Shown here piece after piece: positions 269-35,663 of a stretch of 64,000 nt of DNA. Under the pieces are notes generated by a model, which worked only from the letters and a program-made list of their open reading frames with translations, was not told the DNA's origin and made no database searches. Position numbers and translations under genes: made by a program. The stretch is from an uncultured Nostoc sp. (GTDB taxonomy: Bacteria; Cyanobacteriota; Cyanobacteriia; Cyanobacteriales; Nostocaceae), in the NCBI RefSeq assembly GCF_964245445.1, contig NZ_CAXTNE010000006.1, positions 3,909 to 67,908 on the forward strand, in the 5' to 3' direction. The stretch's first letter is position 1. Every line of letters starts with the position of its first letter.

Positions 269-306
269 AAAATATTGCTGGTTTTTGTAGTTTGACAGGG
301 GAGATT

Positions 307-3300
307 ATGGATAAAAGAAAAGATGAAATTTCAAAACGACGGTCAAAGCTTTCACTCGTGCAGCAAGAGTTTCTCAAAAAGCGGTTACAAGGTGAAATTC
401 ACTCTGACTTTCAATTAGAAGTTATTCCAAAACGTTCCCAAATAAATCCGGCTCCCCTGTCCTTTGCTCAACAACGCTTATGGTTTTTGGCCCAGTTAGA
501 GCCAAACAGTCCTTTCTACAACATCCCTGCTGCTGTTCGTTTACAGGGACAATTGAATCTAGGAGCATTGCAACAAAGTTTCAACGAAATTATCAGTCGC
601 CATGAAGCGTTGCGAAGCAATTTCCAAACAATAGAAGGGCAAGCAATATCTGTCATTTCTGAAATGATGCCCTTAATATTACCAATATTTGATATTAGCG
701 AGCTACCTTTAAATCAACAAGAAGCTGAAGTCAGACAACAGGCTTCTCAAGAAGCACAAAAACCTTTTGCTCTCAACAGCGACTTGTTACTGAGAGCAAA
801 GCTGTTGAGACTTAGTAAACAAGAACATATATTATTACTGACAATGCACCACATTGTCTCTGACGGTTGGTCGATAGGTGTTATGGTGCGCGAATTAGCA
901 ACACTTTATCAAGCCTTCTGTAATGGACAACCCTCGCCGTTACCTGCACTACCAATACAGTATGTAGACTTCGCGGTTTGGCAAAGAGAATGGCTGCAAG
1001 GAGAAGTACTCGAAACTCAGATATCTTATTGGCTTAAGCACTTAGAGAACGCACCAAAAGTATTAGAGTTACCTACAGACCACCCAAGACCAGCAATTCA
1101 GACTTTCCGGGGTGCAACCTACTCATTTAAATTATCAAAAGAATTATCCGCATCCCTAAACAAATTAAGTGAGCAACAGGGAAGTACTTTATTTATGACT
1201 CTGTTAGCAGGTTTCCAAACACTGCTATGGCGTTATACGGGTAAGGAAGATATTGTGATCGGTTCAGCAATCGCTAACCGCAACCGAACAGAGATAGAAG
1301 GGTTAATTGGATTTTTTGTCAATACCTTGGTATTGAGAACTAACCTGGCAGGAAATCCCAGCTTTGAAGAACTACTAAAAAGGGTGCGGGAAGTAGCGTT
1401 AGGAGCTTATGCACATCAGGATTTGCCTTTTGAGTTGTTAGTTGAGCAACTGCAACCACAGCGAGACTTAAGCTATACACCATTATTTCAAGTGATGTTT
1501 GTGCTTCAGAATGCACCGATGTCTGCGTTAGAGTTGCCTGGTTTGACTTTAACTCCCTTAGAAAGCAGTAGTGATAGTGCCAAGTTTGATTTAACCTTAC
1601 AAATGACAGAAACAGAGGAGGGACTAGCTGGAAGCTTAGAATACAATACTGATTTATTTCAAGAAAGTACGATACATCGAATGGCGGGTCATTTGCAAAC
1701 GTTGCTTGAAGGAATTGTTGCTAATCCGCAGCAGCGTTTGTCGGAATTACCACTGTTGAGTGAATCTGAACGGCATCAATTGCTAGTGGAGTGGAATGAC
1801 ACTCAGGTTAATTATCCTCAAGATCAATGCATCCATCAGTTATTCGAGGCTCAAGTAGAACGCACACCTGATTCTATAGCAGTGGTGTTTGAAGACCAAC
1901 AGTTGACCTATGGGGAATTAAACACCAAAGCAAATCAACTAGCGCATTATTTGCAAACATTAGGAGTAAAACCAGAAGTATTAGTCGGGATTTGTGTAGA
2001 GCGATCGCTGTTAATGGCGATCGGACTATTAGCCATCCTGAAAGCAGGTGGTGCATATATACCATTAGACCACAGCTATCCTCAAGAACGCATTGCATTT
2101 ATACTAGAAGACACTCAAGCCCCAGTCTTGCTTACTCAAGAGTCGCTTCTTGAGGCGATGCCGCAACACAAAGCTAAAGTGGTTTGTTTAGATACCGATT
2201 GGCAGACAATCGCCCAACAAACCCAGGAAAATTTATTATCTCTTGTCAATAGTCAGAACTTAGCTTATATCATCTATACCTCAGGTTCAACAGGCAGACC
2301 AAAAGGTGTAATGATTCAACACGCAAACACAGTTGCAATGTTGGATTGGGCAAACAAAACCTTTGCGATGGAAGCTATGCAAGGAGTTTTAGCATCAACC
2401 TCAATTTGCTTCGATCTTTCGGTATTCGAGATATTTGTTCCTCTGTGTTGTGGTGGCAAAGTGATTTTAATCGAGAACGCACTCTTGTTACCAACTTCAT
2501 CAGTAGCCTTAGATGTAACCTTAATTAATACTGTCCCAAGTGTAATTTCACAGTTATTAAAAACTGATAGTATTCCAGCTTCAGTGCAGATTGTGAATGT
2601 CGCAGGTGAACCACTTCATAATAAACTTGTACAACAACTTTATCAGCAAGATAATATACAAAAAGTATTTAACCTATATGGACCTTCAGAAGATACAACT
2701 TATTCAACCTTTGCCTGCATACACAAGGATACCAGCAGCACTCCACCTATCGGTCGCCCGATTTACAACACCCAGATTTATTTATTAGATCAAAATTTAC
2801 AACCTGTTCCTGTAGGTGTAGCAGGGATGTTGTATATTGGTGGTGCAGGTTTAGCCCGTGGTTATCTAAACAAAGCGGAACTGACTGCCGAGAAATTTAT
2901 TCCCAATCCTTACGCCAACTTGCCAGGGGAACGGTTATATAAAACTGGAGATCAAGCACGCTATTTGCCTAATGGAGAGATCGAATATATTGGTCGCGTT
3001 GACTATCAAGTAAAAGTGCGTGGTTTTCGTATTGAACTGTTAGAAATTGAAGCAGTTATTATTCAACACCCAACAGTCCAAGAAGCTGTAGTTGTGGTTA
3101 ATTTTTCACAGGCGGATTCTCAACAAATAGTTGCCTATATAGTTCCACAAATAGAGCAAACGCTAACGATTTCTGAACTGCGTGGCTTTTTGGAGTCAAA
3201 GTTGCCAAGCTATATGGTGCCAGCAGCTTTTGTGATATTATCAGCACTACCATTAACACCTAATGGTAAGGTTGACCGTAAGGCACTACCTACACCTGAT

Positions 3301-5016
3301 ACAGCTAGACCTGAAGACAAAGAACTAGTAGCACCTCGTAATTACATAGAAGCCAAACTGACCGAAATTTGGGCAGGAGTGCTTGGTGTGGATAAAGTGG
3401 GTATTTTTGATAACTTTTTTGAGTTAGGTGGGGATTCTATCCTTGGCATTGTAGTTATTACCAGAGCCAACCAGGCTGGCCTAAAACTGGGAGTTAAACA
3501 ATTATTTCAAGCTCAAACAGTTGCTGGCTTGGCAAGTTTGGCAGTTACGAAAAAGGTAAACCAAACTGAACAAGGACTCATCACAGGTTTAGCCTCTCTC
3601 ACACCAATACAATACTGGTTTTTTGAACAGAATCTACTTGAACCTTACCACTGGAACCAAGCAGTTTTACTAGAAGTTAAACAAGTTCTTCATCTAACTA
3701 TATTAGAAAAATCTGTACAGCAACTACTGTTACACCATGATGTTCTTCGCTTACGTTTTGAGCAAACAGAGTCTGGTTGGCAGCAAATTATATCCAGCCC
3801 TGATACAGAATTACCCTTAATAAATTTTGATTTCTCTGCCCTGTCAGCAAGCAAACAAGAACTAGCCATCGAAACAGCTGCTACCAAATTACAAGCCAGT
3901 CTTAATCTCTCAACAGGCCCATTGATGCGAGTTGCTCTGTTCGACTTAGGGCATCGACCAAGCCGTTTGCTGATACTCATCCACCATTTAGCCGTAGATG
4001 GCGTTTCTTGGCGGATTTTACTGGAGGACTTGGAGACAGTATACCAACAGTTAAATCAAGGCAAGAAAGCGCAATTGCCAACAAAGACAACTTCGTTTAA
4101 ATATTGGTCGCAATGCTTACAGGAATATGCACAATCAGCTACCCTCCAGCAAGAATGGGACTATTGGCTGAGTCCGTCTTGGCAGCAGATTGCTCCTTTA
4201 CCAGTCGATTTTTCTAACGGCGACAATACTGTGGCGGAAGTTCGGAACATCTCAATTTTTCTGACTGTAGAACAGACTCAAGCCTTGCTAAAAGAAGTAC
4301 CAAAAGCTTATAATACACAAATTAATGATGTCTTGTTAACGGCATTAGTACAAGCTTTTTCTCAATGGACTAGCAACAGTTCTTTGTTGTTGGCTCTCGA
4401 AGGTCATGGGCGGGAAGAAATTTTCGATGATGTCGATTTGTCGCGCACAGTAGGTTGGTTTACCTCTGTTTTCCCTGTACTGTTAAATTTAGGAAAAACG
4501 TCTCATCCCGTAGAAGCGTTGAAAGTAGTAAAAGAGCAGCTGCGGGGCATTCCAAATAAGGGAATGGGCTATGGTGTACTACGTTACCTGAGTCAGGATA
4601 CTATGAGAGTAGAGTCACTGCGATCGCTTCCCCAAGCTGAGGTGATCTTCAATTACTTAGGTCAGTTCGATCAAACATTTTCGGACTCGTCAATATTTAA
4701 AATCTCTCATAAATCCCAAGGACAAACGCGCAGTTCGCAAAACTGCGAGACATATATGCTAAATATCGATGCTTTAGTAATTGATAACCAGTTAAGAGTG
4801 AATTGGGCGTACAGTGAAAAAATATATCGACGAAGTACTATTGAACGATTAGCGCAAGAGTTTTTGGAAGCATTGCAAGTACTCGTGACTCATTGTCAAT
4901 ACCCTGAAGACAGAGGATATACACCTTCTGATTTTCCAGAAGCAGACTTAATTCAACAAGACCTTGATCGGTTTTTAGAGAAAATCAACCGAGGGAGTAA
5001 AAATAAAACAACATGA
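307..5016 (+). CDS. NRPS module C-A(Ala)-T-E (D-Ala)
   Basis: C motif MHHIVSDGWS; A cores YTSGSTGRPKG and YKTGD; specificity code read by eye DLFNNALTYK (Ala-type); T motif GGDS; E motif HHLAVDGVSW; C-terminal COM TPSDFPEA. ATG at 307 follows GGGGAG, so it is preferred over TTG at 292. Confidence 0.95.
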   Translation: MDKRKDEISKRRSKLSLVQQEFLKKRLQGEIHSDFQLEVIPKRSQINPAPLSFAQQRLWFLAQLEPNSPFYNIPAAVRLQGQLNLGALQQSFNEIISRHEALRSNFQTIEGQAISVISEMMPLILPIFDISELPLNQQEAEVRQQASQEAQKPFALNSDLLLRAKLLRLSKQEHILLLTMHHIVSDGWSIGVMVRELATLYQAFCNGQPSPLPALPIQYVDFAVWQREWLQGEVLETQISYWLKHLENAPKVLELPTDHPRPAIQTFRGATYSFKLSKELSASLNKLSEQQGSTLFMTLLAGFQTLLWRYTGKEDIVIGSAIANRNRTEIEGLIGFFVNTLVLRTNLAGNPSFEELLKRVREVALGAYAHQDLPFELLVEQLQPQRDLSYTPLFQVMFVLQNAPMSALELPGLTLTPLESSSDSAKFDLTLQMTETEEGLAGSLEYNTDLFQESTIHRMAGHLQTLLEGIVANPQQRLSELPLLSESERHQLLVEWNDTQVNYPQDQCIHQLFEAQVERTPDSIAVVFEDQQLTYGELNTKANQLAHYLQTLGVKPEVLVGICVERSLLMAIGLLAILKAGGAYIPLDHSYPQERIAFILEDTQAPVLLTQESLLEAMPQHKAKVVCLDTDWQTIAQQTQENLLSLVNSQNLAYIIYTSGSTGRPKGVMIQHANTVAMLDWANKTFAMEAMQGVLASTSICFDLSVFEIFVPLCCGGKVILIENALLLPTSSVALDVTLINTVPSVISQLLKTDSIPASVQIVNVAGEPLHNKLVQQLYQQDNIQKVFNLYGPSEDTTYSTFACIHKDTSSTPPIGRPIYNTQIYLLDQNLQPVPVGVAGMLYIGGAGLARGYLNKAELTAEKFIPNPYANLPGERLYKTGDQARYLPNGEIEYIGRVDYQVKVRGFRIELLEIEAVIIQHPTVQEAVVVVNFSQADSQQIVAYIVPQIEQTLTISELRGFLESKLPSYMVPAAFVILSALPLTPNGKVDRKALPTPDTARPEDKELVAPRNYIEAKLTEIWAGVLGVDKVGIFDNFFELGGDSILGIVVITRANQAGLKLGVKQLFQAQTVAGLASLAVTKKVNQTEQGLITGLASLTPIQYWFFEQNLLEPYHWNQAVLLEVKQVLHLTILEKSVQQLLLHHDVLRLRFEQTESGWQQIISSPDTELPLINFDFSALSASKQELAIETAATKLQASLNLSTGPLMRVALFDLGHRPSRLLILIHHLAVDGVSWRILLEDLETVYQQLNQGKKAQLPTKTTSFKYWSQCLQEYAQSATLQQEWDYWLSPSWQQIAPLPVDFSNGDNTVAEVRNISIFLTVEQTQALLKEVPKAYNTQINDVLLTALVQAFSQWTSNSSLLLALEGHGREEIFDDVDLSRTVGWFTSVFPVLLNLGKTSHPVEALKVVKEQLRGIPNKGMGYGVLRYLSQDTMRVESLRSLPQAEVIFNYLGQFDQTFSDSSIFKISHKSQGQTRSSQNCETYMLNIDALVIDNQLRVNWAYSEKIYRRSTIERLAQEFLEALQVLVTHCQYPEDRGYTPSDFPEADLIQQDLDRFLEKINRGSKNKTT
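1783..3335 (+). repeat. 1553-bp direct repeat, copy 1 (entire Ala A domain); copy 2 at 16911-18463
   Basis: Identity starts at CTAGTGGAGTGGAATGAC and ends at GTAGCACC, offset 15128. Off-frame ORFs in the track are duplicated exactly (1874/17002, 2346/17474, 2597/17725). Confidence 0.95.
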
Positions 5017-6413
5017 AAGAAAATATCCAAGATATATATCCATTATCTCCGATACAGCATGGTATGCTTTTTCACAGTTTGCACGCTCCTGAAATGGAAC
5101 TATACCATGCACAAACCGTCTACACTTTCAGTGGCAATCTGAATCTTGCGGCTTTTAAATACGCTTGGCAGCAAGTAGCAACCCGACACACAATGTTGCG
5201 TACTAGCTTCTATTGGGAAGAATTGGATAAACCACTACAAGTTGTGCATCGGCAAGTAGAAGTACCTGTAGAATATCAAGACTGGCAGGAAATCAATCCA
5301 TTAGAACAGCAAGAGCGTTTACAGTCTTTTCTCAACAGCGATCGCCAGCGACGTTTTGATTTTTCCCAAGCACCTCTAATGCGTGTGGCTATCATCCAGA
5401 TTCAAGAACACGCTTACTACCTTGTTTGGAGTAGCAACCTGATCGTTCTAGATGGTTGGTCATATCCATTGGTATTAAATGATGTGATTGAAATTTATGA
5501 AGCTTATTGTCAGGGTGAGGATGCATCCTTAGCAGATGGCAGTTGCTTTAAAGATTATATCAAATGGCTCAAACAGCAGGATTCATCAAAAGCAGAGGAT
5601 TTCTGGCGACAGCATCTTAATGGAGTTAAAGAGGCTACTCCTTTAAGGAATTTAGAGTCAAACAATTTGTCCAACTTAGAACAACGATACGAGGATATAA
5701 AAATCAGTCTATCGGAAGCAACGACAAAGAATCTATATTTATTAGCAAGACAGCATCACCTCACCATGAGTACCCTAGTTCAGGGAGCTTGGGCTATACT
5801 TCTGTATCACTACAGTGGCAAAAATGATGTAGTCTATGGTTGTACTACTTCTGGTCGTCCAGTAGATTTACAAGGTTCAGAGTCAATGGTAGGGGAAATG
5901 GTTAATACCTTACCAGTAAATATCAAGGTAGATATGAATGAGTATTTATTACCTTGGCTTCAACAATTGCAAAATCAGTTAATAGATATTCGTGAATATG
6001 AATATTATCCATTGGTAGATATTCAAAAGTGCAGCGAAGTTCGGGGTAATGTAACCTTGTTTGAGAGCATAGTGGTGTTCGAGAACCAAAAAACAGGTAA
6101 ATTTCTGGAAGAATGGGGGAGTCTAAACATCTCTGAGAAAACTGAATATTACAAAACTAACTATCCTCTAACGATAGTTGGGTATCCTGGTTCAGAACTG
6201 ACAATTGGGATTAATTATGATTTTCGCCGCTTTGATGCTGCAACAATCATTAATATATTGGAGCATTTAAAAATATTGCTCGAAGGCATAGTGACGAATC
6301 CTAAAGTACGTCTTCAGGAGTTATTATTGCTTATAGAGCAAAAACTCCATATTAAATTATCAATGTTAGAAATAGAAATGTCATTGGATTTTGATTTTGT
6401 TTCCACAAATTAA
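5013..6413 (+). CDS. Stand-alone condensation domain (DCL-like) with degenerate active site
   Basis: Starts with acceptor-type IYPLSPIQHGMLFH. The active-site region reads WSSNLIVLDGWS instead of WSHHHxxxDGWS (codons 5427-5459). There is no A or T domain. Confidence 0.9.
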   Translation: MKENIQDIYPLSPIQHGMLFHSLHAPEMELYHAQTVYTFSGNLNLAAFKYAWQQVATRHTMLRTSFYWEELDKPLQVVHRQVEVPVEYQDWQEINPLEQQERLQSFLNSDRQRRFDFSQAPLMRVAIIQIQEHAYYLVWSSNLIVLDGWSYPLVLNDVIEIYEAYCQGEDASLADGSCFKDYIKWLKQQDSSKAEDFWRQHLNGVKEATPLRNLESNNLSNLEQRYEDIKISLSEATTKNLYLLARQHHLTMSTLVQGAWAILLYHYSGKNDVVYGCTTSGRPVDLQGSESMVGEMVNTLPVNIKVDMNEYLLPWLQQLQNQLIDIREYEYYPLVDIQKCSEVRGNVTLFESIVVFENQKTGKFLEEWGSLNISEKTEYYKTNYPLTIVGYPGSELTIGINYDFRRFDAATIINILEHLKILLEGIVTNPKVRLQELLLLIEQKLHIKLSMLEIEMSLDFDFVSTN

Positions 6414-6614
6414 ATAGCTAGATAAAGCTTAAAAAATAAAAGTTAGCAAAAAAAATATTTCCAATATTTTAATATTGATTTATTTATAATTAGAGAAAAA
6501 GAAGGGGTTTTTGGCTTTTAGCGATCGCTTGTTTGACCCGAAGATTTTTTTGAAGGAAAACCCCAGATTCAGCAATACCAGATTAATGTATTTTGTAATT
6601 TAAATAGAAAACTC

Positions 6615-7871
6615 ATGAATATATTTGAAAAGCGTGAATCAAATGTCAGAAGCTATTGCCGCAATTTTACCGCAATCTTTCATAGAGCTAAAGGTTCTAT
6701 AATTTATTCTGAATCAGGTAAAGAATATATTGATTTTTTAGCAGGAGCAGGTGCTTTAAATTATGGACATAATCACGACTATATCAAAGAAAAGGTGATC
6801 TCATACTTAGATGCCGATGGAATAACACATGGTTTGGATATGTATACTTCGGCTAAGGAGAAATTTTTAGCCAAGTTTGATGAGGTAATACTAAGTTCAA
6901 CAAAACTAGATTATCGCATTCAGTTTTGTGGACCAACAGGAACAAATGCAGTTGAAGCTGCTTTAAAACTAGCGAGAAAAATCAAACGAAGAACAGGCAT
7001 ATTTTCCTTCATGGGAGCATATCACGGAATGACTTTAGGGAGCCTATCGATTAGTGGCAACATCGAAATTAGAGCAGGCACAATTGGTACATCAAGTAAT
7101 GTAAATTTTATGCCTTATCCCTATGGATTCATGGAGAGTTTTGACACAATAGAATATATAAATTCTGTTTTAAATGATGTCAAGTCCGGAATTGAAAAAC
7201 CAGCAGCAATAATCTTTGAAACAGTGCAGGCTGAAGGTGGAGTTGTTGTAGCTCCCATTGAGTGGATGCAAAGACTAAGAAGGTTATGTGACGAGAATGA
7301 TATTTTATTAATCTGCGATGATATTCAGGTTGGCTGTGGTCGAACAGGCTCTTTCTTTTCCTTTGAAAGAGCAGATATTGTTCCCGATATGGTAGTACTT
7401 TCTAAATCTATTAGCGGGTACGGGTTTCCAATGTCACTATTATTGATTAAACCAGAATTGGATATATGGGAACCAGGTGAGCATAATGGTACTTTTCGGG
7501 GTAATCAATTGGCATTTATAGGAGCAACAGCGGCTCTAGAGTATAGAGAAAGTAGCAATCTCGAACAAGATGTCAAAGCCAAAGAACTTTTTTTGAAAAA
7601 TTTTCTCACTCAGCAAATAGCACCAATTAGTGAAAAGATAGCAATACGTGGAATTGGTATGATTTGGGGTATTGATTTAAAAAGTTTTGGCGGCAATAGT
7701 TTTGCTAAAAGTATAACATCACGTTGTTTTGAGCTAGGATTAATAGTTGAACGCGCAGGTAGAAATGATACTGTAATTAAAATTTTGCCCCCTTTGGTAA
7801 TTGATATGTCTACCTTAGAAAAAGGTTGTTCAATTATCAAAGAAGCTTTTAATGACTGCATGTCAAATTAA
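6615..7871 (+). CDS. Diaminobutyrate--2-oxoglutarate transaminase (EctB/Dat-like class III aminotransferase)
   Basis: ESNVRSYCRNF N-terminus, GPTGTNAVEAALKLARK, ETVQAEGG, DDIQVGCGRTG, PLP lysine in LSKSISG. Confidence 0.92.
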   Translation: MNIFEKRESNVRSYCRNFTAIFHRAKGSIIYSESGKEYIDFLAGAGALNYGHNHDYIKEKVISYLDADGITHGLDMYTSAKEKFLAKFDEVILSSTKLDYRIQFCGPTGTNAVEAALKLARKIKRRTGIFSFMGAYHGMTLGSLSISGNIEIRAGTIGTSSNVNFMPYPYGFMESFDTIEYINSVLNDVKSGIEKPAAIIFETVQAEGGVVVAPIEWMQRLRRLCDENDILLICDDIQVGCGRTGSFFSFERADIVPDMVVLSKSISGYGFPMSLLLIKPELDIWEPGEHNGTFRGNQLAFIGATAALEYRESSNLEQDVKAKELFLKNFLTQQIAPISEKIAIRGIGMIWGIDLKSFGGNSFAKSITSRCFELGLIVERAGRNDTVIKILPPLVIDMSTLEKGCSIIKEAFNDCMSN

Positions 7872-7924
7872 ATTGGCATACTAATATTTATAACTCAGCA
7901 AGTAATTTATTATCACGAAACAAT

Positions 7925-10696: not shown

Positions 10697-10731
10697 AAAC
10701 GAATAGAATATTAATTAAAAGGATAAAAATA

Positions 10732-13700
10732 ATGCCTAACTCAGTAGATTATTTAAGTGACAAAACAGGCTTAGAAATAGCTATTATTGGGATGAGTGGC
10801 TGTTTTCCCAAATCTCAAAATATTGAGCGATTTTGGCAAAATATCCGAGACGGAGTAGAATTGATTCATTATTTCACCGCTTCAGAGCTAAAAGATTTAG
10901 GTGTAGATTCTGCCGACCTGACAAACCCTTATTATGTCAGGGCAGAGGGTGTAGTTGAAGGTATAGATTTGTTTGATGCTTCATTCTTCGGTATAAATCC
11001 CAGAGAAGCTGAAATTATGGATCCCGGACTCCGTTTGTTTTTAGAACATGCATGGACAGCACTTGAAAATGCTGGTTATAGTTCCGAAGCTTACAATCAG
11101 CCGATTGGAGTTTATGTTGGTACTAGTTTTGGCGGTTATTTACGTAATATTTATTCAAATTATGAAATTGTAGAATCTCTTGGTGAACAACAAATAGAGA
11201 AAGGAACCTCTGGAGCTTCCGTTACATTTGCTTCTTATAAATTAAACTTGCAGGGACCAAGTTATGCCGTTCAAACTACCTGCTCAAGTTCATTGGTTGC
11301 TTTACATTTAGCCTGTCAAGGTTTACTTAGTGGCGAGTGTGATGTTGCTTTGGCGGCTGGAGTCTCAATTTCAGAAGCAGTCGGTTATGTATATCAGCAA
11401 GATGGAACTTCATCTCCTGATGGACATTGCCGTGCTTTTGATGTCAAGGCCAAGGGATGTCCGAGAGGAAGGGGTTTAGGTGTTGTAGTTTTAAAGCGTT
11501 TAGACGAAGCGATCGCAGATGGAGACTGCATCCATGCAGTCATCAAAGGTTCCGCCATTAATAATGATGGAGCAAACAAAGTTAGCTACACTGCACCCAG
11601 CGTTGACGGTCAGGCAAAGGTGATTAGAGCGGCTCAGATTATGGCTGAGGTGGAACCCGAAACAATTACCTATATAGAGGCTCATGGGACTGCAACCGCT
11701 CTAGGCGACCCCGTTGAAATTGCTGCTTTAACACAAGCTTTCCGCAGCAAAACTCAGAAAAAGGGCTTTTGTGCGATCGGTTCTTTGAAAACCAACATTG
11801 GACATTTGGACGAAGCTGCTGGCGTTGCAAGTCTAATCAAAACCGTTTTAGCGCTCAAGCATAAACAGATACCACCTAGCTTAAACTTTGAAGAACCTAA
11901 CCCCCAGATAGATTTTGCTAACAGTCCTTTTTACGTTAACAACACATTGTCTGAGTGGAAAAGCAATGACGCTCCTCGTCGTGCTGGAGTTAGTGCTTTT
12001 GGTTTTGGTGGGACAAATGCCCATGTAATTTTAGAAGAAGCGACCATAATTAAACCCTCTAGCCCTTCTCGGTCTTGGCAGTTATTATTACTTTCAACCA
12101 AAACAAATACAGCACTGGAAACTGCTACAGAAAATCTGGCTAATTATCTCCAAAAGCATCCAGATTTCAATCTTGCTGATGTTGCTCATACTTTGCAAGT
12201 GGGTCGCTGGACTTTGAACCATCGCCGAATGGTAGTTTGCCAAGACCAAGGAGATGCAATCAAAGCACTGCAAGACCCTCAAATGGCTTTCACCCATTAC
12301 CAAGAACCTTGTAATCGCTCGATTGTGTTTATGTTTTCTGGACAAGGTTCGCAGTATGTAAACATGGGTCGGGAATTATACGATAGTGAAACCGTATTTA
12401 GAGAGCAAGTTGATTACTGCTGCGAGCTGCTCATACCTCACTTAGAAATAGACCTACGTACAATTTTCTACCCCTGTGAAGAAAAAACTCAAGAAGCAGC
12501 ACAAAAGTTACAGCAAACAGCAATTATTCAACCAGCTTTGTTTGTGCTTGAATATGCTCTAGCCAAGTTATTGATGGCCTGGGGCGTGCGTCCTGAGAGT
12601 ATGATTGGTCACGGTGTAGGAGAGTATGTAGCTGCCACTGTGGCAGGGGTTTTCTCTTTGGAAGATGCCTTGGCAATAGTAGCCACTCGCGGAAAACTAA
12701 TGCAGCAATTGCCTGGTGGTGCTATGCTCTCAGTTCAGCTTCCAGAACAAGAGGTAGAACAACTGCTAGAAAAGGAAATCTCTCTGGCTGCAAGCAATGC
12801 ACCTTCTTCCTGCGTGGTGTCTGGTTCGACAGAAGCGATAGACCAATTGCAACAGATGCTACAAAAAATAGGTGTAAGTTGTAGACATTTGCATACTTCC
12901 CACGCCTTTCATTCTCAAATGATGGAACCCATCATTGAGACTTTCACCTGGTCGTTACAAAAACTAAAACTTAATCCCCCAAAAATTCCTTTTGTGTCCA
13001 ATGTTAGCGGAACTTGGATTACCGTAGCAGAAGCGACAGACCCTAACTATTGGGCGAGGCATTTAAGGCAGCCAGTGCGTTTTAGCCAAGGGGTAACAGA
13101 GTTACTCAAACAGCCAGAGCAAATACTGTTGGAGATTGGCCCGGGACGGACACTGAGTAGTTTGGCTAAACAACATCAAACAGATGAACTGATAGCGCTA
13201 ACCTCTATACGACATCCTCAAGAGCAACAATCAGATGTAGCATTTTTACTCAACACCTTGGGTAGACTTTGGGTAGTAGGAGTTCACATTAATTGGTCTG
13301 GTTTTTACGTAGATGAAAAGCGTCATCGTGTACCCTTACCTACTTATCCTTTTGAGCGCAAGCGTTACTGGCTGGAGGTAAATCGAAATGCACTTCTGGC
13401 AATGAAGTCGCCAAAAACCTTAGATAAGAAGCCAGATATTGCTGACTGGTTCTATATTCCTCGTTGGAGAGAATCTACACCGCTTGAGCTTTTCCAAAAA
13501 CAAAAGCTGGTAGAACAAAAGTTATGTTGGCTAGTTTTTGTCGATACCTATGGAGTTGGATCAGAAATTGCAGAAAGACTCAAACAACAAGGTAAGGATG
13601 TGATTACCGTCAAAGTCGCAAATAATTTTGCGAAACTTAGTGACTGTACATATACAATTAATCCCCAACAGAGAGATGATTATGATATCTTGCTTCAAAC

Positions 13701-15483
13701 ACTAAGAGAGCAGAATTGGACTGCCCAGGGGATTGCCCATTTTTGGGGCGTTACTCCCAACGATACTCTACACTCTCAAGAGCTAGAAAAACAAACACAA
13801 CATCAATTTTTTGAAGATTGTCAGTATCTCGGTTTCTGGAGTCTACTTTTTTTAGCACAGGCCTTAGGAAAACAAGATATTAGCAATTCTCTGAAGATGA
13901 TGGTAGTCACCAGTAATTTATATGATGTAACTGGCGAGGAGAAATTATGCCCTTCTAAAGCAACCGTATTAGGGCCATGTAAGGTAATTCCCAAGGAATA
14001 TTCAAACATATATTGCCGTAATATTGATATAGTAGTCAATTCTTTAAAAACCCCACCAGGACAAAATGTTTTAGACAATTTGCTCGCAGAATTTACAGCA
14101 GATCAAACAGATGACATAGTTGCCTACCGTGGTTATCATCGCTGGATTCAATCCTTCGAGCCTGTGCATTTAGAACAGAGCATAGCTGATAAAACTAAGT
14201 TAAAGGAGGGAGGGGTTTACTTAATTACTGGTGGACTAGGCGGTATTGGTTTAGTATTAGCAGAACATCTAGCAAAGAAAGTGCAGGCTAAATTAGTTCT
14301 AGTTGGACGAAAGAGTATTCCCGAAAAAAATAATTGGCAAGAATGGTTGGCAACTCATGATCAACAAGATAGGGTTAGCCGGATAATTTGTAAACTGCAA
14401 GTATTAGAGGCTCTTGGTGCAGAAGTTTTGGTAATCAGCGCAGATGTGACTAATTCCGAACAAATGCAGGCTGTGATTGCTCAGTCAACAGCAAAATTTG
14501 GTGTGATTAATGGTGTTGTCCACGCAGCTGGTATTGCTGGTGGCGGTGTCATCCAACTTAAAACCCCGGATATAGCAAGCAAGGTACTCGCACCAAAAGT
14601 CAGAGGAACGATATTACTAGAGCAAGTTTTTCAGAATATTAATCTAGATTTCTTGGTACTTTGTTCATCCCAAAGTTCTATATTGGGTGAATTTGGACAG
14701 GTAGATTATTGCGCGGCTAATGCATTTCTTGATGTATATGCATATAATCAAGTTTCTAAATCTGGACGATTAACAATATCAATCGACTGGGATACTTGGC
14801 AAGAAGTAGGTATGGCAACGGAGATTATTTTACCAGATAATCTCAAATATATAGCTGAAGATGTAGTTGCAGAAGAGTTAAAAGAAGCTATAATGCCCCA
14901 AGAAGGCGCTGATGCTTTTGATCGCATTTTGGGAAGTGCCTTACCTCACGTTGTTGTGTCAACAAAAAATTTCTCAGATGTAATTAAGGAGAATCATTAT
15001 CTCAATTTTCTGGCAGAAGGATTAAAACTTCTGGAAGATAACTCAGCTTCAGCTAGTATTTTCCAAGTAAACCATCCTCGCCCAAATCTAGGTAATGATT
15101 ATGTTGCACCTAATAATGAAATTGAAGGAACTATTGCTCGAATCTGGCAACAGATCCTGGGAATTAATCAAATAGGTATTCATGATAGCTTTTTTGATTT
15201 GGGAGGACATTCCCTATTAGCTACTCAACTTCTCTCTCGATTGCGTCAAGAGTTTCAAGTAAACCTGTCTCTGCATAGCTTTTTTGAAGCACCCACTATT
15301 ATCGATCAAGCATTGATGGTTGAACAGACCCGAAGTTCGGGAGAAAGGTATAGTATCAACATGATTGAAAGAATCGAGCGGAGTAATGAGCAACAGGTGT
15401 TGGCAAAGCTCGATCAAATTTCAGACCAAGAAGTAGAGTTACTGCTTAATAAGGTGTTAGCAGAAAAGGGAACCGAGCAATGA
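10732..15483 (+). CDS. Type I PKS KS-AT(inactive)-KR-ACP
   Basis: KS triad TTCSSS, EAHGT, GHL. AT active site is GHGVG (Ser to Gly at 12613-12615) with HAFH. KR has GGLGGIG and QVDYCAAN. ACP GGHS. Confidence 0.95.
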   Translation: MPNSVDYLSDKTGLEIAIIGMSGCFPKSQNIERFWQNIRDGVELIHYFTASELKDLGVDSADLTNPYYVRAEGVVEGIDLFDASFFGINPREAEIMDPGLRLFLEHAWTALENAGYSSEAYNQPIGVYVGTSFGGYLRNIYSNYEIVESLGEQQIEKGTSGASVTFASYKLNLQGPSYAVQTTCSSSLVALHLACQGLLSGECDVALAAGVSISEAVGYVYQQDGTSSPDGHCRAFDVKAKGCPRGRGLGVVVLKRLDEAIADGDCIHAVIKGSAINNDGANKVSYTAPSVDGQAKVIRAAQIMAEVEPETITYIEAHGTATALGDPVEIAALTQAFRSKTQKKGFCAIGSLKTNIGHLDEAAGVASLIKTVLALKHKQIPPSLNFEEPNPQIDFANSPFYVNNTLSEWKSNDAPRRAGVSAFGFGGTNAHVILEEATIIKPSSPSRSWQLLLLSTKTNTALETATENLANYLQKHPDFNLADVAHTLQVGRWTLNHRRMVVCQDQGDAIKALQDPQMAFTHYQEPCNRSIVFMFSGQGSQYVNMGRELYDSETVFREQVDYCCELLIPHLEIDLRTIFYPCEEKTQEAAQKLQQTAIIQPALFVLEYALAKLLMAWGVRPESMIGHGVGEYVAATVAGVFSLEDALAIVATRGKLMQQLPGGAMLSVQLPEQEVEQLLEKEISLAASNAPSSCVVSGSTEAIDQLQQMLQKIGVSCRHLHTSHAFHSQMMEPIIETFTWSLQKLKLNPPKIPFVSNVSGTWITVAEATDPNYWARHLRQPVRFSQGVTELLKQPEQILLEIGPGRTLSSLAKQHQTDELIALTSIRHPQEQQSDVAFLLNTLGRLWVVGVHINWSGFYVDEKRHRVPLPTYPFERKRYWLEVNRNALLAMKSPKTLDKKPDIADWFYIPRWRESTPLELFQKQKLVEQKLCWLVFVDTYGVGSEIAERLKQQGKDVITVKVANNFAKLSDCTYTINPQQRDDYDILLQTLREQNWTAQGIAHFWGVTPNDTLHSQELEKQTQHQFFEDCQYLGFWSLLFLAQALGKQDISNSLKMMVVTSNLYDVTGEEKLCPSKATVLGPCKVIPKEYSNIYCRNIDIVVNSLKTPPGQNVLDNLLAEFTADQTDDIVAYRGYHRWIQSFEPVHLEQSIADKTKLKEGGVYLITGGLGGIGLVLAEHLAKKVQAKLVLVGRKSIPEKNNWQEWLATHDQQDRVSRIICKLQVLEALGAEVLVISADVTNSEQMQAVIAQSTAKFGVINGVVHAAGIAGGGVIQLKTPDIASKVLAPKVRGTILLEQVFQNINLDFLVLCSSQSSILGEFGQVDYCAANAFLDVYAYNQVSKSGRLTISIDWDTWQEVGMATEIILPDNLKYIAEDVVAEELKEAIMPQEGADAFDRILGSALPHVVVSTKNFSDVIKENHYLNFLAEGLKLLEDNSASASIFQVNHPRPNLGNDYVAPNNEIEGTIARIWQQILGINQIGIHDSFFDLGGHSLLATQLLSRLRQEFQVNLSLHSFFEAPTIIDQALMVEQTRSSGERYSINMIERIERSNEQQVLAKLDQISDQEVELLLNKVLAEKGTEQ

Positions 15484-18400
15484 CCAAGAATCGCGAAAAA
15501 ATTAATGATATTTCACCAGAAAGAAAACGTGAATTGTTGGCAAAACTACTTCAAGAAAAGGTTAGCCAGCTTCAGATTTTTCCAATGTCTTTTGGTCAAC
15601 AACGACTTTGGTTTATAGACCAATTGCAACCTGGTAACTTTGCTAATCACATATCGGCAGCTTTGCGTCTTACAGGTTTCCTGAATCAAGCTGTATTATT
15701 GCAAACCCTGGATGAAATAGTGCAACGCCACGAAGTTTTGCGAACTACTTTCGCAACGGTGGAAGAAAAACCTGTTCAGGTAATTATTCCTACTTTAAGC
15801 TTGAATTTACCTACCATCAATCTGGAGGAATTATCTGAGGTTGAGCAAGAAGCTGAAGTTAAAAAGTTAGTTATACAAGAAATTCAGCAACCCTTTAATT
15901 TGAGCCAAGCTCCATTACTGCGAGCTACTTTGCTGCGTCTCAAAGAAACAGAACACATTTTAGTGTTCACAATGCACCATATTATCTCTGACGGATGGTC
16001 AATGGGAGTACTGACTCAAGAAGTCGCAGTACTTTACGAAGCCTTCTCGAAAGGGCAGCCTTCTTTGCTTTCAGAACTGCCAATACAGTATGTAGACTTT
16101 GCAGCTTGGCAGCGACAAAGGCTACAAGGAGAACTACTACAATCACAAATAGCTTATTGGAAAAACCAGTTAGAGGGCGCACCAAAATTATTAGAGTTAC
16201 CTACTGACTACCCACGACCTGCCGTTAGCAGCTTTCAGGGTGCCAGCTATTCATTTGAGTTATCTGATGATTTATATGTAGCCTTAAATAAATTGAGCCA
16301 GCAGTATGGAAGTACCTTATTTATGATCCTGCTGGCAGCCTTTCAAACATTACTATGGCGTTATACAGGTAGTGAAGATATTGTAGTCGGCTCGCCCATT
16401 GCTAACCGCGATCGCACAGAGTTAGAAGGATTAATTGGTTTTTTTGCCAATACAATTGCACTGCGAACTAATTTGGTAGGTAATCCTACCTTTGAGGATC
16501 TACTAACTCGCGTGCGGACAAAGCTATTAGAAGCTTACACCCATCAAGATTTACCTTTTGAGCAACTAGTAGAAGAACTGCAACCACAAAGAAACTTGAG
16601 CTACACCCCAGTATTTCAAGTGATGTTTGTACTTCAAAATACACCAATGTCAGTTTTTGAGTTGCCTGGTTTGACTATAAGTCCCTTGGCAATTGATAAT
16701 GGTAGTGCCAAGTTTGATTTGACCCTAGAGATAACAGAAACACCACAAAAAATTTTTGCTAACCTGGAGTTTAATACAGATTTATTTAAGGAAAGTACTA
16801 TTAAGCGGATGGCTGGACATTTCCAGACCTTACTTAAAGAGATTATTGCAAACCCGAAACTACGGCTTTCAGAATTATCACTGCTAACAGAAGCAGAAAA
16901 ACGTCAATTACTAGTGGAGTGGAATGACACTCAGGTTAATTATCCTCAAGATCAATGCATCCATCAGTTATTCGAGGCTCAAGTAGAACGCACACCTGAT
17001 TCTATAGCAGTGGTGTTTGAAGACCAACAGTTGACCTATGGGGAATTAAACACCAAAGCAAATCAACTAGCGCATTATTTGCAAACATTAGGAGTAAAAC
17101 CAGAAGTATTAGTCGGGATTTGTGTAGAGCGATCGCTGTTAATGGCGATCGGACTATTAGCCATCCTGAAAGCAGGTGGTGCATATATACCATTAGACCA
17201 CAGCTATCCTCAAGAACGCATTGCATTTATACTAGAAGACACTCAAGCCCCAGTCTTGCTTACTCAAGAGTCGCTTCTTGAGGCGATGCCGCAACACAAA
17301 GCTAAAGTGGTTTGTTTAGATACCGATTGGCAGACAATCGCCCAACAAACCCAGGAAAATTTATTATCTCTTGTCAATAGTCAGAACTTAGCTTATATCA
17401 TCTATACCTCAGGTTCAACAGGCAGACCAAAAGGTGTAATGATTCAACACGCAAACACAGTTGCAATGTTGGATTGGGCAAACAAAACCTTTGCGATGGA
17501 AGCTATGCAAGGAGTTTTAGCATCAACCTCAATTTGCTTCGATCTTTCGGTATTCGAGATATTTGTTCCTCTGTGTTGTGGTGGCAAAGTGATTTTAATC
17601 GAGAACGCACTCTTGTTACCAACTTCATCAGTAGCCTTAGATGTAACCTTAATTAATACTGTCCCAAGTGTAATTTCACAGTTATTAAAAACTGATAGTA
17701 TTCCAGCTTCAGTGCAGATTGTGAATGTCGCAGGTGAACCACTTCATAATAAACTTGTACAACAACTTTATCAGCAAGATAATATACAAAAAGTATTTAA
17801 CCTATATGGACCTTCAGAAGATACAACTTATTCAACCTTTGCCTGCATACACAAGGATACCAGCAGCACTCCACCTATCGGTCGCCCGATTTACAACACC
17901 CAGATTTATTTATTAGATCAAAATTTACAACCTGTTCCTGTAGGTGTAGCAGGGATGTTGTATATTGGTGGTGCAGGTTTAGCCCGTGGTTATCTAAACA
18001 AAGCGGAACTGACTGCCGAGAAATTTATTCCCAATCCTTACGCCAACTTGCCAGGGGAACGGTTATATAAAACTGGAGATCAAGCACGCTATTTGCCTAA
18101 TGGAGAGATCGAATATATTGGTCGCGTTGACTATCAAGTAAAAGTGCGTGGTTTTCGTATTGAACTGTTAGAAATTGAAGCAGTTATTATTCAACACCCA
18201 ACAGTCCAAGAAGCTGTAGTTGTGGTTAATTTTTCACAGGCGGATTCTCAACAAATAGTTGCCTATATAGTTCCACAAATAGAGCAAACGCTAACGATTT
18301 CTGAACTGCGTGGCTTTTTGGAGTCAAAGTTGCCAAGCTATATGGTGCCAGCAGCTTTTGTGATATTATCAGCACTACCATTAACACCTAATGGTAAGGT

Positions 18401-20135
18401 TGACCGTAAGGCACTACCTACACCTGATACAGCTAGACCTGAAGACAAAGAACTAGTAGCACCGCAGACAACCCTTGAAAAGCAGTTGGCTGTGATCTGG
18501 ACAGAAGTATTAGGCCTGAAAAATATAAGTATAAACGACAACTTTTTTGGATTAGGTGGGGATTCGATTCTTAGCCTTCAAGTAATATCCAAAGCCAACC
18601 AAACAGGGCTGCACCTAACTCCTAAACAGATGTTTCAGTACCAAACTATTGCCCAATTAGCGACAGTAATTGGTGCAACTCAGAAAATTCAAGCTGAACA
18701 AGGAGTTTTAACTGGAGCGCTAGAGCTAATACCTATTCAGCACTGGTTTTTTGAACAAAAGCAACCAGAACCACACCATTGGAATCAAGCTGTATTCTTA
18801 GAAAGCAAGCAGAATATTGACCCTGTGGTTTTAGAGAAAATTATAAAGTTTCTACAAATACATCATGATGTACTACGTTTACGATTTATACAAGAGGAAT
18901 TTAGTACTCAAGCACTTATTGTTAGTCCTGATGATGTAATACCACTGACATGCTTTAATTTCTCAGCACTACCAAAAGATCGACAATCGCCAGCAATAGA
19001 GGCAGCAGCAACTAAACTTCAAGCTAGCTTAAATCTGTCACAAGGGCCGTTATTCCAGGTTGCGCTTTTCAACTTGGGCGACAATCAACCCAACCGCTTG
19101 CTTTGGATTATTCACCACTTAGCTGTTGATGGTGTCTCTTGGCGAATTTTAATTGAAGATTTTCAAACAGCTTACCAGCAAATTAGTCAAGGCAAAGTAA
19201 TTAAGTTGCCACCCAAAACAACTTCTTACAAACAATGGTCTAGCCATCTACAAAAATATGCACAAGCTTCAGCACTACTTTCAGAGCTAGACTTTTGGCT
19301 GAGAACACAATATCAATCAGTTTCGTCTATACCAAGAGATTTTCCTGATGGAAATAATATAGAAGAAACCACTTCTATGGTATCGGTATCGCTGTCTGTA
19401 GAAGAAACCCAAAGTTTGCTGCAACAAGTGCCAGCAGCTTACCAAACACAAATTAATGATGTATTGTTAACAGCACTTATACTAACGTTTAATCACTGGA
19501 CGGGAGAAAATTCTCTACTAATTGACTTGGAAGGGCATGGGCGAGAAGAAATCTTTGAGGATGTGGACTTATCGAGGACTATCGGTTGGTTTACAACTAT
19601 TTTCCCAGTACACCTAAAGCTGGAAAATGCCAACGAGCAAGGAAAAGTCTTGAAGTCAATAAAAGAGCAGCTACGAGCAATTCCGAATCGAGGTATTGGC
19701 TATGGATTACTGCGCTATCTTTGTCAGGACAAAAAAATAGCTGAACAATTTTCCTCATCAAAGGCTGAAGTTGCTTTCAACTATTTAGGACAGTTCGATC
19801 AAGTTTTACCAGAATCATCTTTATTTAGCTTCGCGCAGGAATCGAGTGGTTCTACTAAAAATTTGCAAAGTAAACGAACTCATTTACTGGAAATTAACGG
19901 TGGTATTTATCAAGGAAATTTGGAAATGAGTTGGTTTTACAGTAGTCAGTTGCATCGACAAACCACGATTGAAGTACTTGCTCAGAGGTTTATTGAGGAA
20001 CTGCGATCGCTGATTGCTCATTGCCTATCTCCCAATGCAGGTGGTTTTACCCCTTCCGATTTCGCAGATTTTCAGCAAAGCCAATGGGATCAAACCGATC
20101 TCGATGCCATTACAGCAGCTATGGGGGATATCTAA
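15480..20135 (+). CDS. NRPS module C-A(Ala)-T-E (D-Ala)
   Basis: C MHHIISDGWS; A domain identical to that of 307-5016; T GGDS; E HHLAVDGVSW; COM TPSDFADF. Confidence 0.95.
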   Translation: MTKNREKINDISPERKRELLAKLLQEKVSQLQIFPMSFGQQRLWFIDQLQPGNFANHISAALRLTGFLNQAVLLQTLDEIVQRHEVLRTTFATVEEKPVQVIIPTLSLNLPTINLEELSEVEQEAEVKKLVIQEIQQPFNLSQAPLLRATLLRLKETEHILVFTMHHIISDGWSMGVLTQEVAVLYEAFSKGQPSLLSELPIQYVDFAAWQRQRLQGELLQSQIAYWKNQLEGAPKLLELPTDYPRPAVSSFQGASYSFELSDDLYVALNKLSQQYGSTLFMILLAAFQTLLWRYTGSEDIVVGSPIANRDRTELEGLIGFFANTIALRTNLVGNPTFEDLLTRVRTKLLEAYTHQDLPFEQLVEELQPQRNLSYTPVFQVMFVLQNTPMSVFELPGLTISPLAIDNGSAKFDLTLEITETPQKIFANLEFNTDLFKESTIKRMAGHFQTLLKEIIANPKLRLSELSLLTEAEKRQLLVEWNDTQVNYPQDQCIHQLFEAQVERTPDSIAVVFEDQQLTYGELNTKANQLAHYLQTLGVKPEVLVGICVERSLLMAIGLLAILKAGGAYIPLDHSYPQERIAFILEDTQAPVLLTQESLLEAMPQHKAKVVCLDTDWQTIAQQTQENLLSLVNSQNLAYIIYTSGSTGRPKGVMIQHANTVAMLDWANKTFAMEAMQGVLASTSICFDLSVFEIFVPLCCGGKVILIENALLLPTSSVALDVTLINTVPSVISQLLKTDSIPASVQIVNVAGEPLHNKLVQQLYQQDNIQKVFNLYGPSEDTTYSTFACIHKDTSSTPPIGRPIYNTQIYLLDQNLQPVPVGVAGMLYIGGAGLARGYLNKAELTAEKFIPNPYANLPGERLYKTGDQARYLPNGEIEYIGRVDYQVKVRGFRIELLEIEAVIIQHPTVQEAVVVVNFSQADSQQIVAYIVPQIEQTLTISELRGFLESKLPSYMVPAAFVILSALPLTPNGKVDRKALPTPDTARPEDKELVAPQTTLEKQLAVIWTEVLGLKNISINDNFFGLGGDSILSLQVISKANQTGLHLTPKQMFQYQTIAQLATVIGATQKIQAEQGVLTGALELIPIQHWFFEQKQPEPHHWNQAVFLESKQNIDPVVLEKIIKFLQIHHDVLRLRFIQEEFSTQALIVSPDDVIPLTCFNFSALPKDRQSPAIEAAATKLQASLNLSQGPLFQVALFNLGDNQPNRLLWIIHHLAVDGVSWRILIEDFQTAYQQISQGKVIKLPPKTTSYKQWSSHLQKYAQASALLSELDFWLRTQYQSVSSIPRDFPDGNNIEETTSMVSVSLSVEETQSLLQQVPAAYQTQINDVLLTALILTFNHWTGENSLLIDLEGHGREEIFEDVDLSRTIGWFTTIFPVHLKLENANEQGKVLKSIKEQLRAIPNRGIGYGLLRYLCQDKKIAEQFSSSKAEVAFNYLGQFDQVLPESSLFSFAQESSGSTKNLQSKRTHLLEINGGIYQGNLEMSWFYSSQLHRQTTIEVLAQRFIEELRSLIAHCLSPNAGGFTPSDFADFQQSQWDQTDLDAITAAMGDI
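16911..18463 (+). repeat. 1553-bp direct repeat, copy 2
   Basis: Same sequence as 1783-3335; I saw no mismatch by eye. Confidence 0.95.
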
Positions 20136-20136
20136 C

Positions 20137-23100: not shown

Positions 23101-23469
23101 AAATTAGAAGCAGCTTATCAGCCACCCCAAACCGAAATAGAAAAAACTATTGCTAGTATATGGCAACAAATACTGAATGTTGAGGACGTAGGAATTTATG
23201 ACAATTTCTTTGAACTTGGTGGTCATTCATTGCTATTAATTCAAGTTCATAGCAAGTTGCAAAAAGTATTTCAGCGATATTTCACCTTAGTTGATATGTT
23301 TGAATATCCGACTGTAAGTCACTTGGCTAAATATTTTAGTCAGGAATCTAGCGAAGAAACACCTGTTTTACTAGCTGCTCATCATCCAGAGAGCAGAACG
23401 GCTTCAGTACAGCGGCGAAAACAAGTTAGAAAACAGTATCGAGAAGCAACAAAGCAAAAAGATATTTAG
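20137..23469 (+). CDS. NRPS module C(DCL)-A(basic amino acid, Arg/Lys/Orn-like)-T
   Basis: The likely start is the ATG at 20137, one base after the upstream stop (the ORF-track start at 20014 overlaps the previous gene). FYPLSPMQQG, WSHHHLLLDGWS; A code by eye DVEDIGAVSK; T GGHS. Confidence 0.92.
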   Translation: MGVQNKNIEDFYPLSPMQQGILFHSLADPKSGIYFEQFSWTLHGKLNVTAFHRAWQHIVEQYSILRTCFVWEGLKEPVQIVHRQVALPWHEYNWQDLSPEEQQQKLELFLQSDRSSGFELKQPPLMRLTLIQLSDISYNFTWSHHHLLLDGWSVALVFKEVLACYKAFSNGQDLYLESIRPYRDYIVWLQQQNLSEAETFWRQMLKGFTTPTQLSVNQGTRKLLTQTDGYDEREVKLSVVTTAALQSVAKQHQLTLNTLVQGAWALLLSCYSGQEDVVFGAVTSGRPPTLPQAESMVGLFINMLPIRVQVSPKEFLLPWLQKIKDQLVEARQYEYCPLVKVQEWSEVSKGVSLFESIVVFENYAVDPSLRQRDINLEIEEFHSFEKTNYPITLSVNPGEELLLNITCDDSDRFDTDTITRMLGHLQTLLEGMSTNPQQRLGELSLLTEHERHQLLVEWNQTQVEYSQDQCIHQLFEAQVERTPDAIAVVFEDQQLSYCELNARANQLAYYLQTLGVKPEVLVGICVERSIEMIIGILAILKAGGAYVPIDPTYPQQRLALLLNDAPLTVLLTQQYLLAQLPPHTAKVICLDDDINWQAGSSAIKQNPVNQTTPANLVYVIYTSGSTGTPKGVTIEHQSLVNFVQAAIAEYELQAQDRILQFASISFDVACEEIFSCLLHGATLVLRTDDMLASIPALLEKCQQQCISVLDIPTAFWHQLTSELSTSELKLPESLRLVIIGGEKASPDKVLTWQQKVKPEIRLVNAYGPTETTVSATVCNFARTKELVKVEREVPIGRAIANMQTYVLNTDLQPVPIGVWGELYIGGIGVARGYLHQPGLTAQKFIPNPFSDRPGSRLYKTGDRVRYRSDGQIEFSDRIDNQVKIRGFRIELGEIEALINEHPSVMEATVISRKDVSDYEQLVAYVVANTSDVVKEQTSAVVSQLRQHLEAKLPNYMMPSAFVMLNALPLTPNGKVDRQALPAPGTTRPKLEAAYQPPQTEIEKTIASIWQQILNVEDVGIYDNFFELGGHSLLLIQVHSKLQKVFQRYFTLVDMFEYPTVSHLAKYFSQESSEETPVLLAAHHPESRTASVQRRKQVRKQYREATKQKDI

Positions 23470-35476: not shown

Positions 35477-35663
35477 TATAATTGCAGAGATTAGTGGCTA
35501 AGTCAAAATTAATTTTTTTGATGATAGGACTTGTCACTTAATAAGCTTTTGATAACAGTATAGTTATCTGAATCAAGAGTTTGGGAATGAGAATTTTTAT
35601 TAAGCGGCAAGTCAAAATTTAGCTAAAAAACTAAAAATAATAAATATTAATAATTTCTTGGCA

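Follow-up and report, generated by a model that had tools for sequence, protein, structure and literature searches.

Probable recent gene conversion of a complete adenylation domain within a hybrid NRPS-PKS cluster of an uncultured Nostoc

How do two genes of one biosynthetic cluster come to carry a domain that is identical to the last base when the domains on either side of it have diverged? The question is raised by a 64,000-nucleotide stretch of DNA from an uncultured Nostoc sp. (assembly GCF_964245445.1, contig NZ_CAXTNE010000006.1, positions 3,909 to 67,908 of the forward strand), referred to in full as the window, which is 39% G+C and harbors on its plus strand a large hybrid nonribosomal peptide synthetase (NRPS)-polyketide synthase (PKS) cluster. 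Two of its open reading frames (ORFs), O1 and O6, each encode an NRPS module of the condensation (C)-adenylation (A)-thiolation (T)-epimerization (E) type, and the two modules share one A domain sequence. We consider it highly probable that this reflects a very recent, non-reciprocal gene conversion within the cluster, in which the complete Ala-specific A domain of O6 was copied over the A domain of O1, 15.1 kb upstream. The block of genes between the two copies is older than the repeat that brackets it.

Extent and direction of the A-domain repeat

Comparison of the window with itself reveals that the longest exact match at an offset of 15128 bp extends over 1553 bp, with 1783-3335 and 16911-18463 being 100% identical. 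Identity drops to ≈0.6-0.7 directly outside the repeat, and the C, T, and E domains of O1 and O6 are 62% identical, so chance cannot account for a match of this length. Both copies begin at codon position 1 and encode the same 518 residues, from LVEWND to ELVAP (amino acids 498-1015 of O1 and 478-995 of O6); that 15128 is not a multiple of 3 is irrelevant for the frame, as the two copies reside in different ORFs. The translated repeat contains matches to the A-domain motifs A1, A3, A4, A7, A9, and A10, and in O1 it is placed between a Pfam Condensation match that ends at residue 498 and a PP-binding match that starts at residue 1022. An initial annotation of this DNA had described identical 1553-bp repeats that cover the Ala A domain almost exactly from LVEWND to LVAP, are read in the same codon frame, and are flanked by diverged C, T, and E domains, and the offset comparison, translation, motif matches, and Pfam borders bear out this description.

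We aligned O1 and O6 of the window with two O1 orthologues and three O6 orthologues. In sliding windows, O1 is 94-95% identical to orthologous O1 genes outside 1783-3335 but 62% identical inside, falling to ≈40% in the core, whereas the same tract is 93-94.5% identical to orthologous O6 genes; O6 itself is ≈95% identical to its orthologues along the whole gene. P3034 was sampled for both genes, and its O1 and O6 A domains share 40-83% identity and form no repeat. Diagnostic sites, defined as those at which every O1 orthologue differs from every O6 sequence, are of the O1 type up to position 1775 of the window, of the O6 type between 1785 and 3324 (469 sites without interruption), and of the O1 type again from 3338. 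One clean tract of O1 has thus been replaced by O6 sequence, and the transfer ran from O6 to O1, because orthologous O6 genes carry the same A domain and orthologous O1 genes do not. The exact repeat, its diverged flanks, and the 469-site tract uphold the initial proposal of recent gene conversion or domain transfer, to which the orthologue comparison adds the direction of transfer and a predicted change in specificity.

The distribution of the two alleles points to a derived event. In a search of ≈15 billion proteins, the 1569-residue form of O1 (P0006, the translation of O1 from position 307) is a singleton cluster, and orthologues of 1581-1582 residues fall into two clusters at 79-80% identity to it. 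A DLKNFGT-type, non-Ala pocket is found in all 17 full-length members read in these two clusters, which come from Nostoc associated with lichens and include that of N. punctiforme NIES-2108, and the O6 pocket, DLFNNALTYK, is found in three of three O6 orthologues read. A genome scan with the decarboxylase PanP (O8) identified NIES-2108 and lichen-associated Nostoc metagenome-assembled genomes as the closest loci (95-99% PanP identity), which share the order O5-O6-(O7)-PanP-O9-O10, and the contigs of the O1 orthologues carry the full order FkbH-O1-O2-O3-O4-O5. The order O1-O2-O3-O4-O5-O6 is present in every close orthologue examined, with O1 and O6 A domains that are not identical. Contigs of four further related runs, from strains ≈95% related, contain a nonmatching O1 A domain over ≈1.1 kb and then the intervening block, and a metagenome scan with the FkbH-like protein encoded upstream returned only relatives at ≤81% identity. 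The converted state appears to be derived, confined to one genome among everything searched, and very young, given 0 differences in 1553 bp as compared with a divergence of 5-7% from the nearest relatives. As a separate observation, the O6 A domain of another strain (P8219, locus L003) bears, where it aligns to 1873-1897 of the window, a short patch of O1-type variants in common with O1 of P3034, which hints at short conversion tracts running in the opposite direction in other strains.

From these data we infer an ectopic, non-reciprocal recombination between paralogous modules of one cluster, with O6 sequence transferred into O1. As the junctions are in the C-A and A-T linkers, O1 would have retained its own C, T, and E domains and gained a complete new substrate-selecting A domain, giving a chimeric module that presumably works. 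The specificity code of both A domains is now DLFNNALTYK, which we take to be an Ala code. The pocket of the O1 orthologues reads DLKNFGTDIK in the better of two alignments and is equal at 8 of 10 positions to DLKNFGSDVK, reported as a homoserine (Hse) code (PMC7524897). Residue 1, which is set by O1, is predicted from these codes to have changed from homoserine-like to Ala. A side effect of such an event would be the two perfect 1.55-kb direct repeats that now bracket the stretch from the T-E didomain of O1 through the C domain of O6, between which RecA-type recombination could yield an in-frame O1-O6 fusion with the loss of 15128 bp.

Alternative explanations and the status of the intervening block

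A number of points weigh against this reconstruction. The converted allele is known from one assembly only, and in searches of public runs the share of matching words did not exceed 0.28 for long stretches and reached only two of five for the junction. The parental types share ≈9-13 bp at the junctions, which is short for classical homologous recombination and for RecA-dependent exchange and leaves the mechanism or the exact ancestral sequence uncertain; an ancestor with more local identity, a microhomology-based process, or a longer tract later trimmed by selection might each explain such short homology. The identity of the repeats may fall short of a strict 100%, as interior differences between long repeats can be lost in a consensus. 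The codes depend on a manually entered GrsA reference, which did return its own canonical code, DAWTIAAICK, and positions 330/331 shifted between two alignments. Finally, literature searches for the product of the cluster linked no compound to it, and the paper on minutumamide makes no mention of the cluster.

The single assembly and the lack of a matching public run would also be expected of an assembly artefact, in which the true O1 A domain is of the orthologue type and O6 sequence was misplaced there or, in a milder form, two similar copies were homogenized by consensus or polishing. Exact-protein look-ups of O1, O2, O3, and PanP in the contig index yielded no record. The A-R-B-R-C layout is a simple loop that a short-read assembler can traverse without spanning evidence, and in a second repeat of the cluster, that of the acyltransferase (AT) domains described below, mismatches occur only ≤36 bp from the edge, such that interior differences could have been lost. 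However, the ≈9 and ≈13 bp shared at the two switch points are far under any assembly k-mer, so that reads across each junction must underlie the assembly; the true A domain would have to be lost cleanly at both ends with the frame kept; and sequences that are 62% identical cannot be homogenized by polishing. The milder form would turn only "exact" into "nearly exact." We therefore regard an artefact as quite improbable. Identity alone is symmetric and would fit equally well with O1 as donor and O6 as recipient, or with an origin of both copies outside the cluster, but orthologous O6 genes have the same A domain and code at 93-94.5% identity and orthologous O1 genes do not; on this orthologue comparison the reverse direction and an external donor were rejected, and we assign them next to no likelihood.

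It had also been proposed that the 15.1-kb block is a recently inserted, repeat-flanked module cassette, gained or lost as a unit to give long and short products. Perfect direct repeats do bracket the block, and a simulated crossover excises 15128 bp, after which a single open 1566-residue hybrid ORF remains, with the arrangement C(O1)-A-T(O6)-E(O6), so the excision product is intact and in frame; as to the claim that a functional C-A-T-E gene would remain, the size and the open frame hold, and the deletion itself stays a prediction for which no allele was found. Related clusters also vary in whole blocks, with some passing from O5 to PanP (no O6-O7) and others from O4 to a C-A-T module and PanP (no O5). 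However, all close orthologues sampled carry the block and lack the repeats, which places the block before the repeats, and the latter arose secondarily, by overwriting of the O1 A domain. Among the protein matches, loci, and runs examined there was no deletion allele, empty-site orthologue, hybrid protein, or run with the junction, and no recombinase or mobility gene is present in the block, the six ORFs of ≥150 residues that cover it carrying only biosynthetic Pfam domains. Furthermore, the O2-O3-O4 unit, predicted to supply and use 2,4-diaminobutyrate (Dab), is among the most conserved blocks of the wider family, recurring in dozens of clusters from Nostocales, Microcoleus, and Chroococcidiopsis whose modules are otherwise freely shuffled. 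A search of related genomes for clusters that lack exactly this block had been suggested; layouts without it, of the type FkbH, C-A-T-E, C-A-T, are found only in distant clusters, at 47-52% identity. A recent insertion or routine loss of the block is thus not supported, and we judge the cassette proposal to be very improbable.

A deletion through 1.55 kb of perfect homology is nonetheless mechanistically plausible, and a deletion variant could coexist with the full-length form, as the A-R-B-R-C graph looks alike either way and a short-read assembly graph cannot separate a mixture from the full-length form. This raises the tentative and rather unlikely scenario of a two-step contraction of assembly lines, in which an A-domain conversion makes long direct repeats and recombination between them then removes the intervening modules in frame, with the present strain as a snapshot. 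In that case, cells with and without the 15.1-kb deletion may already coexist in culture, yielding a short product alongside a long one that contains Dab and one polyketide unit. Conversion of O1 by O6 remains the reading that we adopt in what follows.

The surrounding assembly line and its other exchanges

The features of the locus are collected in Table 1. The window starts within the C terminus of an FkbH-like protein, and the orthologous contigs extend upstream of FkbH-O1 into a further PKS, a discrete AT, a 3-hydroxyacyl-CoA dehydrogenase, an acyl carrier protein (ACP), an acyl-CoA dehydrogenase, and two cupin/JmjC proteins. Rfam and tRNA scans of the window gave no matches.

Table 1. Coordinates of the A-domain repeat, its junctions, and the genes and domains of the cluster; positions refer to the window unless a locus is named
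Feature	Position	Strand	Basis and remarks
Repeat copy 1, recipient; whole A domain of O1, C-A linker to most of the A-T linker	1783-3335	+	Exact identity, O6-type diagnostic sites
Repeat copy 2, donor; native A domain of O6	16911-18463	+	≈95% collinear with O6 of three orthologous clusters
Left junction interval, C-domain end/C-A linker start (...ERHQL/LVEWND)	1776-1784	+	Diagnostic sites; parental types share ≈9 bp
Right junction interval, A-T linker (...ELVAP/RNYIE)	3325-3337	+	Diagnostic sites; parental types share ≈13 bp
Segment lost by a single crossover: O1 T-E, O2, O3, O4, O5, O6 C, and one repeat copy	3336-18463 (15128 bp)	+	Simulated; predicted liability
O1, NRPS C-A-T-E	292-5016	+	Pfam; likely true start ATG at 307, giving 1569 residues
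O2, stand-alone C domain	5013-6413	+	Pfam; start overlaps the O1 stop codon (5013 vs 5016)
O3, EctB-type L-2,4-diaminobutyrate:2-oxoglutarate transaminase	6615-7871	+	NCBIfam
O4, C-terminal half of a C domain followed by A-T	7925-10696	+	Pfam; half-C at 7925-8680
O5, PKS KS-AT-KR-ACP	10732-15483	+	Pfam
O6, NRPS C-A-T-E, older paralogue of O1	15480-20135	+	Pfam; ≈95% identical to orthologues throughout
O7, C-A-T	20014-23469	+	Pfam
Loci compared at the O7 position	Window 20014-23469; L001 and L003 5158-9843; L002 6446-9901		
O8, PanP-type pyridoxal phosphate-dependent aspartate 1-decarboxylase	23627-25273	+	TIGR03799, 614.7 bits (cut-off 606.1)
O9, PKS module 3' of O8; AT domain, AT repeat copy 1	26937-28018 (AT)	+	Domain searches; repeat of 1082 bp, 2 mismatches
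O10, PKS module 3' of O8; AT domain, AT repeat copy 2	31633-32714 (AT)	+	Domain searches; repeat of 1082 bp, 2 mismatches
Methyltransferase gene	Between O10 and O12	+	Domain searches
O12, terminal module C-A-T-TE	35658-39770	+	Domain searches
Two P450s, MATE exporter, SDR, O-methyltransferase	3' of O12		Domain searches

The Pfam and NCBIfam assignments agree with the gene content initially given for the block, namely T-E, a His-less C domain, a Dab transaminase, a Dab module, an AT-dead PKS, and the next C domain. O3 scores above the curated NCBIfam cut-offs of both TIGR02407 (575.6 bits; cut-off 552.2) and NF006733 (612.1 bits; cut-off 438) and would supply Dab. The adjoining O4 (code DIWEISADDK), which neighbors O3 in most related loci as well, would be the Dab-activating module. 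O7 has the code DVEDIGAVSK, which equals the Arg code DVEDIGAVEK (PMC5311044) at 9 of 10 positions. As listed, the O7 ORF and the 3' end of O6 have 122 nt in common (20014-20135), probably through an artefact of ORF calling, as the real start looks like an ATG followed by MGVQNKNIEDFYPLSP, at or just past the O6 stop. A domains that activate beta-amino acids lack Asp235. The O12 pocket, VDWIISFANK, also lacks this residue, consistent with a supply of beta-alanine by PanP; together these features suggest in-cluster beta-alanine synthesis and a C-terminal beta-Ala ahead of release.

The block had been credited with two catalytic lesions. The descriptions are correct, but the conservation of both across orthologues argues against decay, and they look like functional design, that is, a noncanonical C domain in O2 and a trans-loaded module in O5. 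O2 carries NLxxxDG in place of HHxxxDG, and the second His is also absent from the close relatives sampled (L081/L082, L083, L101, and L106) and from several more distant family members; L, M, or F replaces it in several lineages at 55-96% identity, many preceding Dab units, and other O2 homologues keep NH or HH. The gene order here is a full-length C domain in O2, the Dab transaminase gene, and then O4, whose C domain lacks the N-terminal half. In O5, the canonical GHSxG of the AT is GHGVG in the window and GHGIG or GDGIG in orthologues, such that Gly replaces the active-site Ser, and the O5 orthologue of P3034 (L081 20452-24749) is in addition missing ≈60 AT residues; the ATs of O9 and O10 have GHSIG. 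O5 is probably served by a discrete AT. We take the upstream gene set of the orthologues (discrete AT, FkbH, ACP, and dehydrogenases) to be a hydroxy- or methoxymalonyl-ACP pathway with a trans-acting AT, which would explain an inactive O5 AT and suggests that O5 is trans-loaded with a hydroxy- or methoxymalonyl unit.

Two further sites in the cluster show signs of exchange. O9 and O10 share 1046 bp of identical sequence in their AT domains, with both mismatches of the repeat ≤36 bp from its left edge, and in orthologues these ATs are near-identical within a genome and ≈5% diverged between genomes, a pattern that indicates concerted evolution by repeated gene conversion. At the O7 position, four close orthologues present three A pockets (DVEDIGAVSK, DAEDIGSVVK, and DAFVLRGISK), the last within a reading frame of 1561 residues; this frame, found in NIES-2108 and P8219 (1561 vs 1151 residues), resembles O7 of the window only at the T-domain end. 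The module before PanP appears to be a second diversification hotspot. We count the ongoing conversion of the O9/O10 ATs and the A-domain turnover at O7 as support for the conversion of O1 by O6.

More broadly, the locus belongs to a large cluster family in Nostocales, Microcoleus, and Chroococcidiopsis (loci L004-L163) that contains the same blocks (FkbH, the O2-O3-O4 Dab unit, PKS modules, PanP, and a terminal beta-Ala-type C-A-T-TE) in many orders, with whole module blocks present or missing between members. Literature searches tied no product to this family. The predicted difference of one position from relatives, homoserine-like to Ala, could help to link this orphan and widespread family to a compound.

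Relation to known systems

Concerted evolution of domains occurs within modular PKS/NRPS clusters, and the O9/O10 ATs resemble such cases, indicating the same recombination activity as behind the A-domain copy. Homogenization of the ATs leaves function unchanged, whereas the A-domain event alters the predicted specificity. A close precedent for the latter is adenylation-domain replacement between mcyB1 and mcyC in microcystin synthetase, which exchanges the A domain (A1-A10, reaching into T), leaves the C domain in place, and alters the microcystin variant (Fewer et al. 2007, PMC2174460; Tooming-Klunderud et al. 2008, PMC2564945). In both systems two modules of one cyanobacterial NRPS cluster recombine, the A domain alone is replaced, and the C domain is not transferred. 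The Nostoc case differs in that the NRPS-PKS cluster is uncharacterized, 15 kb and four genes separate the modules, and the copies are still 100% identical, with known donor and recipient and with both junctions placed to ≈10 bp; the change in specificity and product variant known for mcyB1/mcyC is here predicted from codes only.

A survey of natural NRPS recombination found that Acore is mostly what is swapped, the C-A linker and Asub being retained (Baunach et al. 2021, PMC8097286). The Nostoc event is similar in that recombination was aimed at the A domain alone, within a genome, in cyanobacteria, and with mosaic NRPS genes as the outcome, but its tract comprises the C-A linker, Acore, Asub, and most of the A-T linker and is therefore a rarer, whole-domain unit. 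It thus provides a clean natural swap of an entire A domain at approximately zero age, for which donor, recipient, both junctions (LVEWND in the C-A linker and ELVAP in the A-T linker), and ancestral state are known. Natural exchange-unit boundaries of this kind are sought by NRPS engineers, and this tract includes the C-A linker and Asub.

Nodularin synthetase is proposed to have arisen from microcystin synthetase through the loss of two modules (cited in PMC8097286). The Nostoc repeats would likewise permit a multimodule deletion with in-frame fusion; here such a deletion is only predicted, no deleted allele having been observed. Conversion of an A domain is a mechanism already established for microcystin synthetase, and the replacement of the O1 A domain by that of O6 is an additional clean case of it rather than a new principle.

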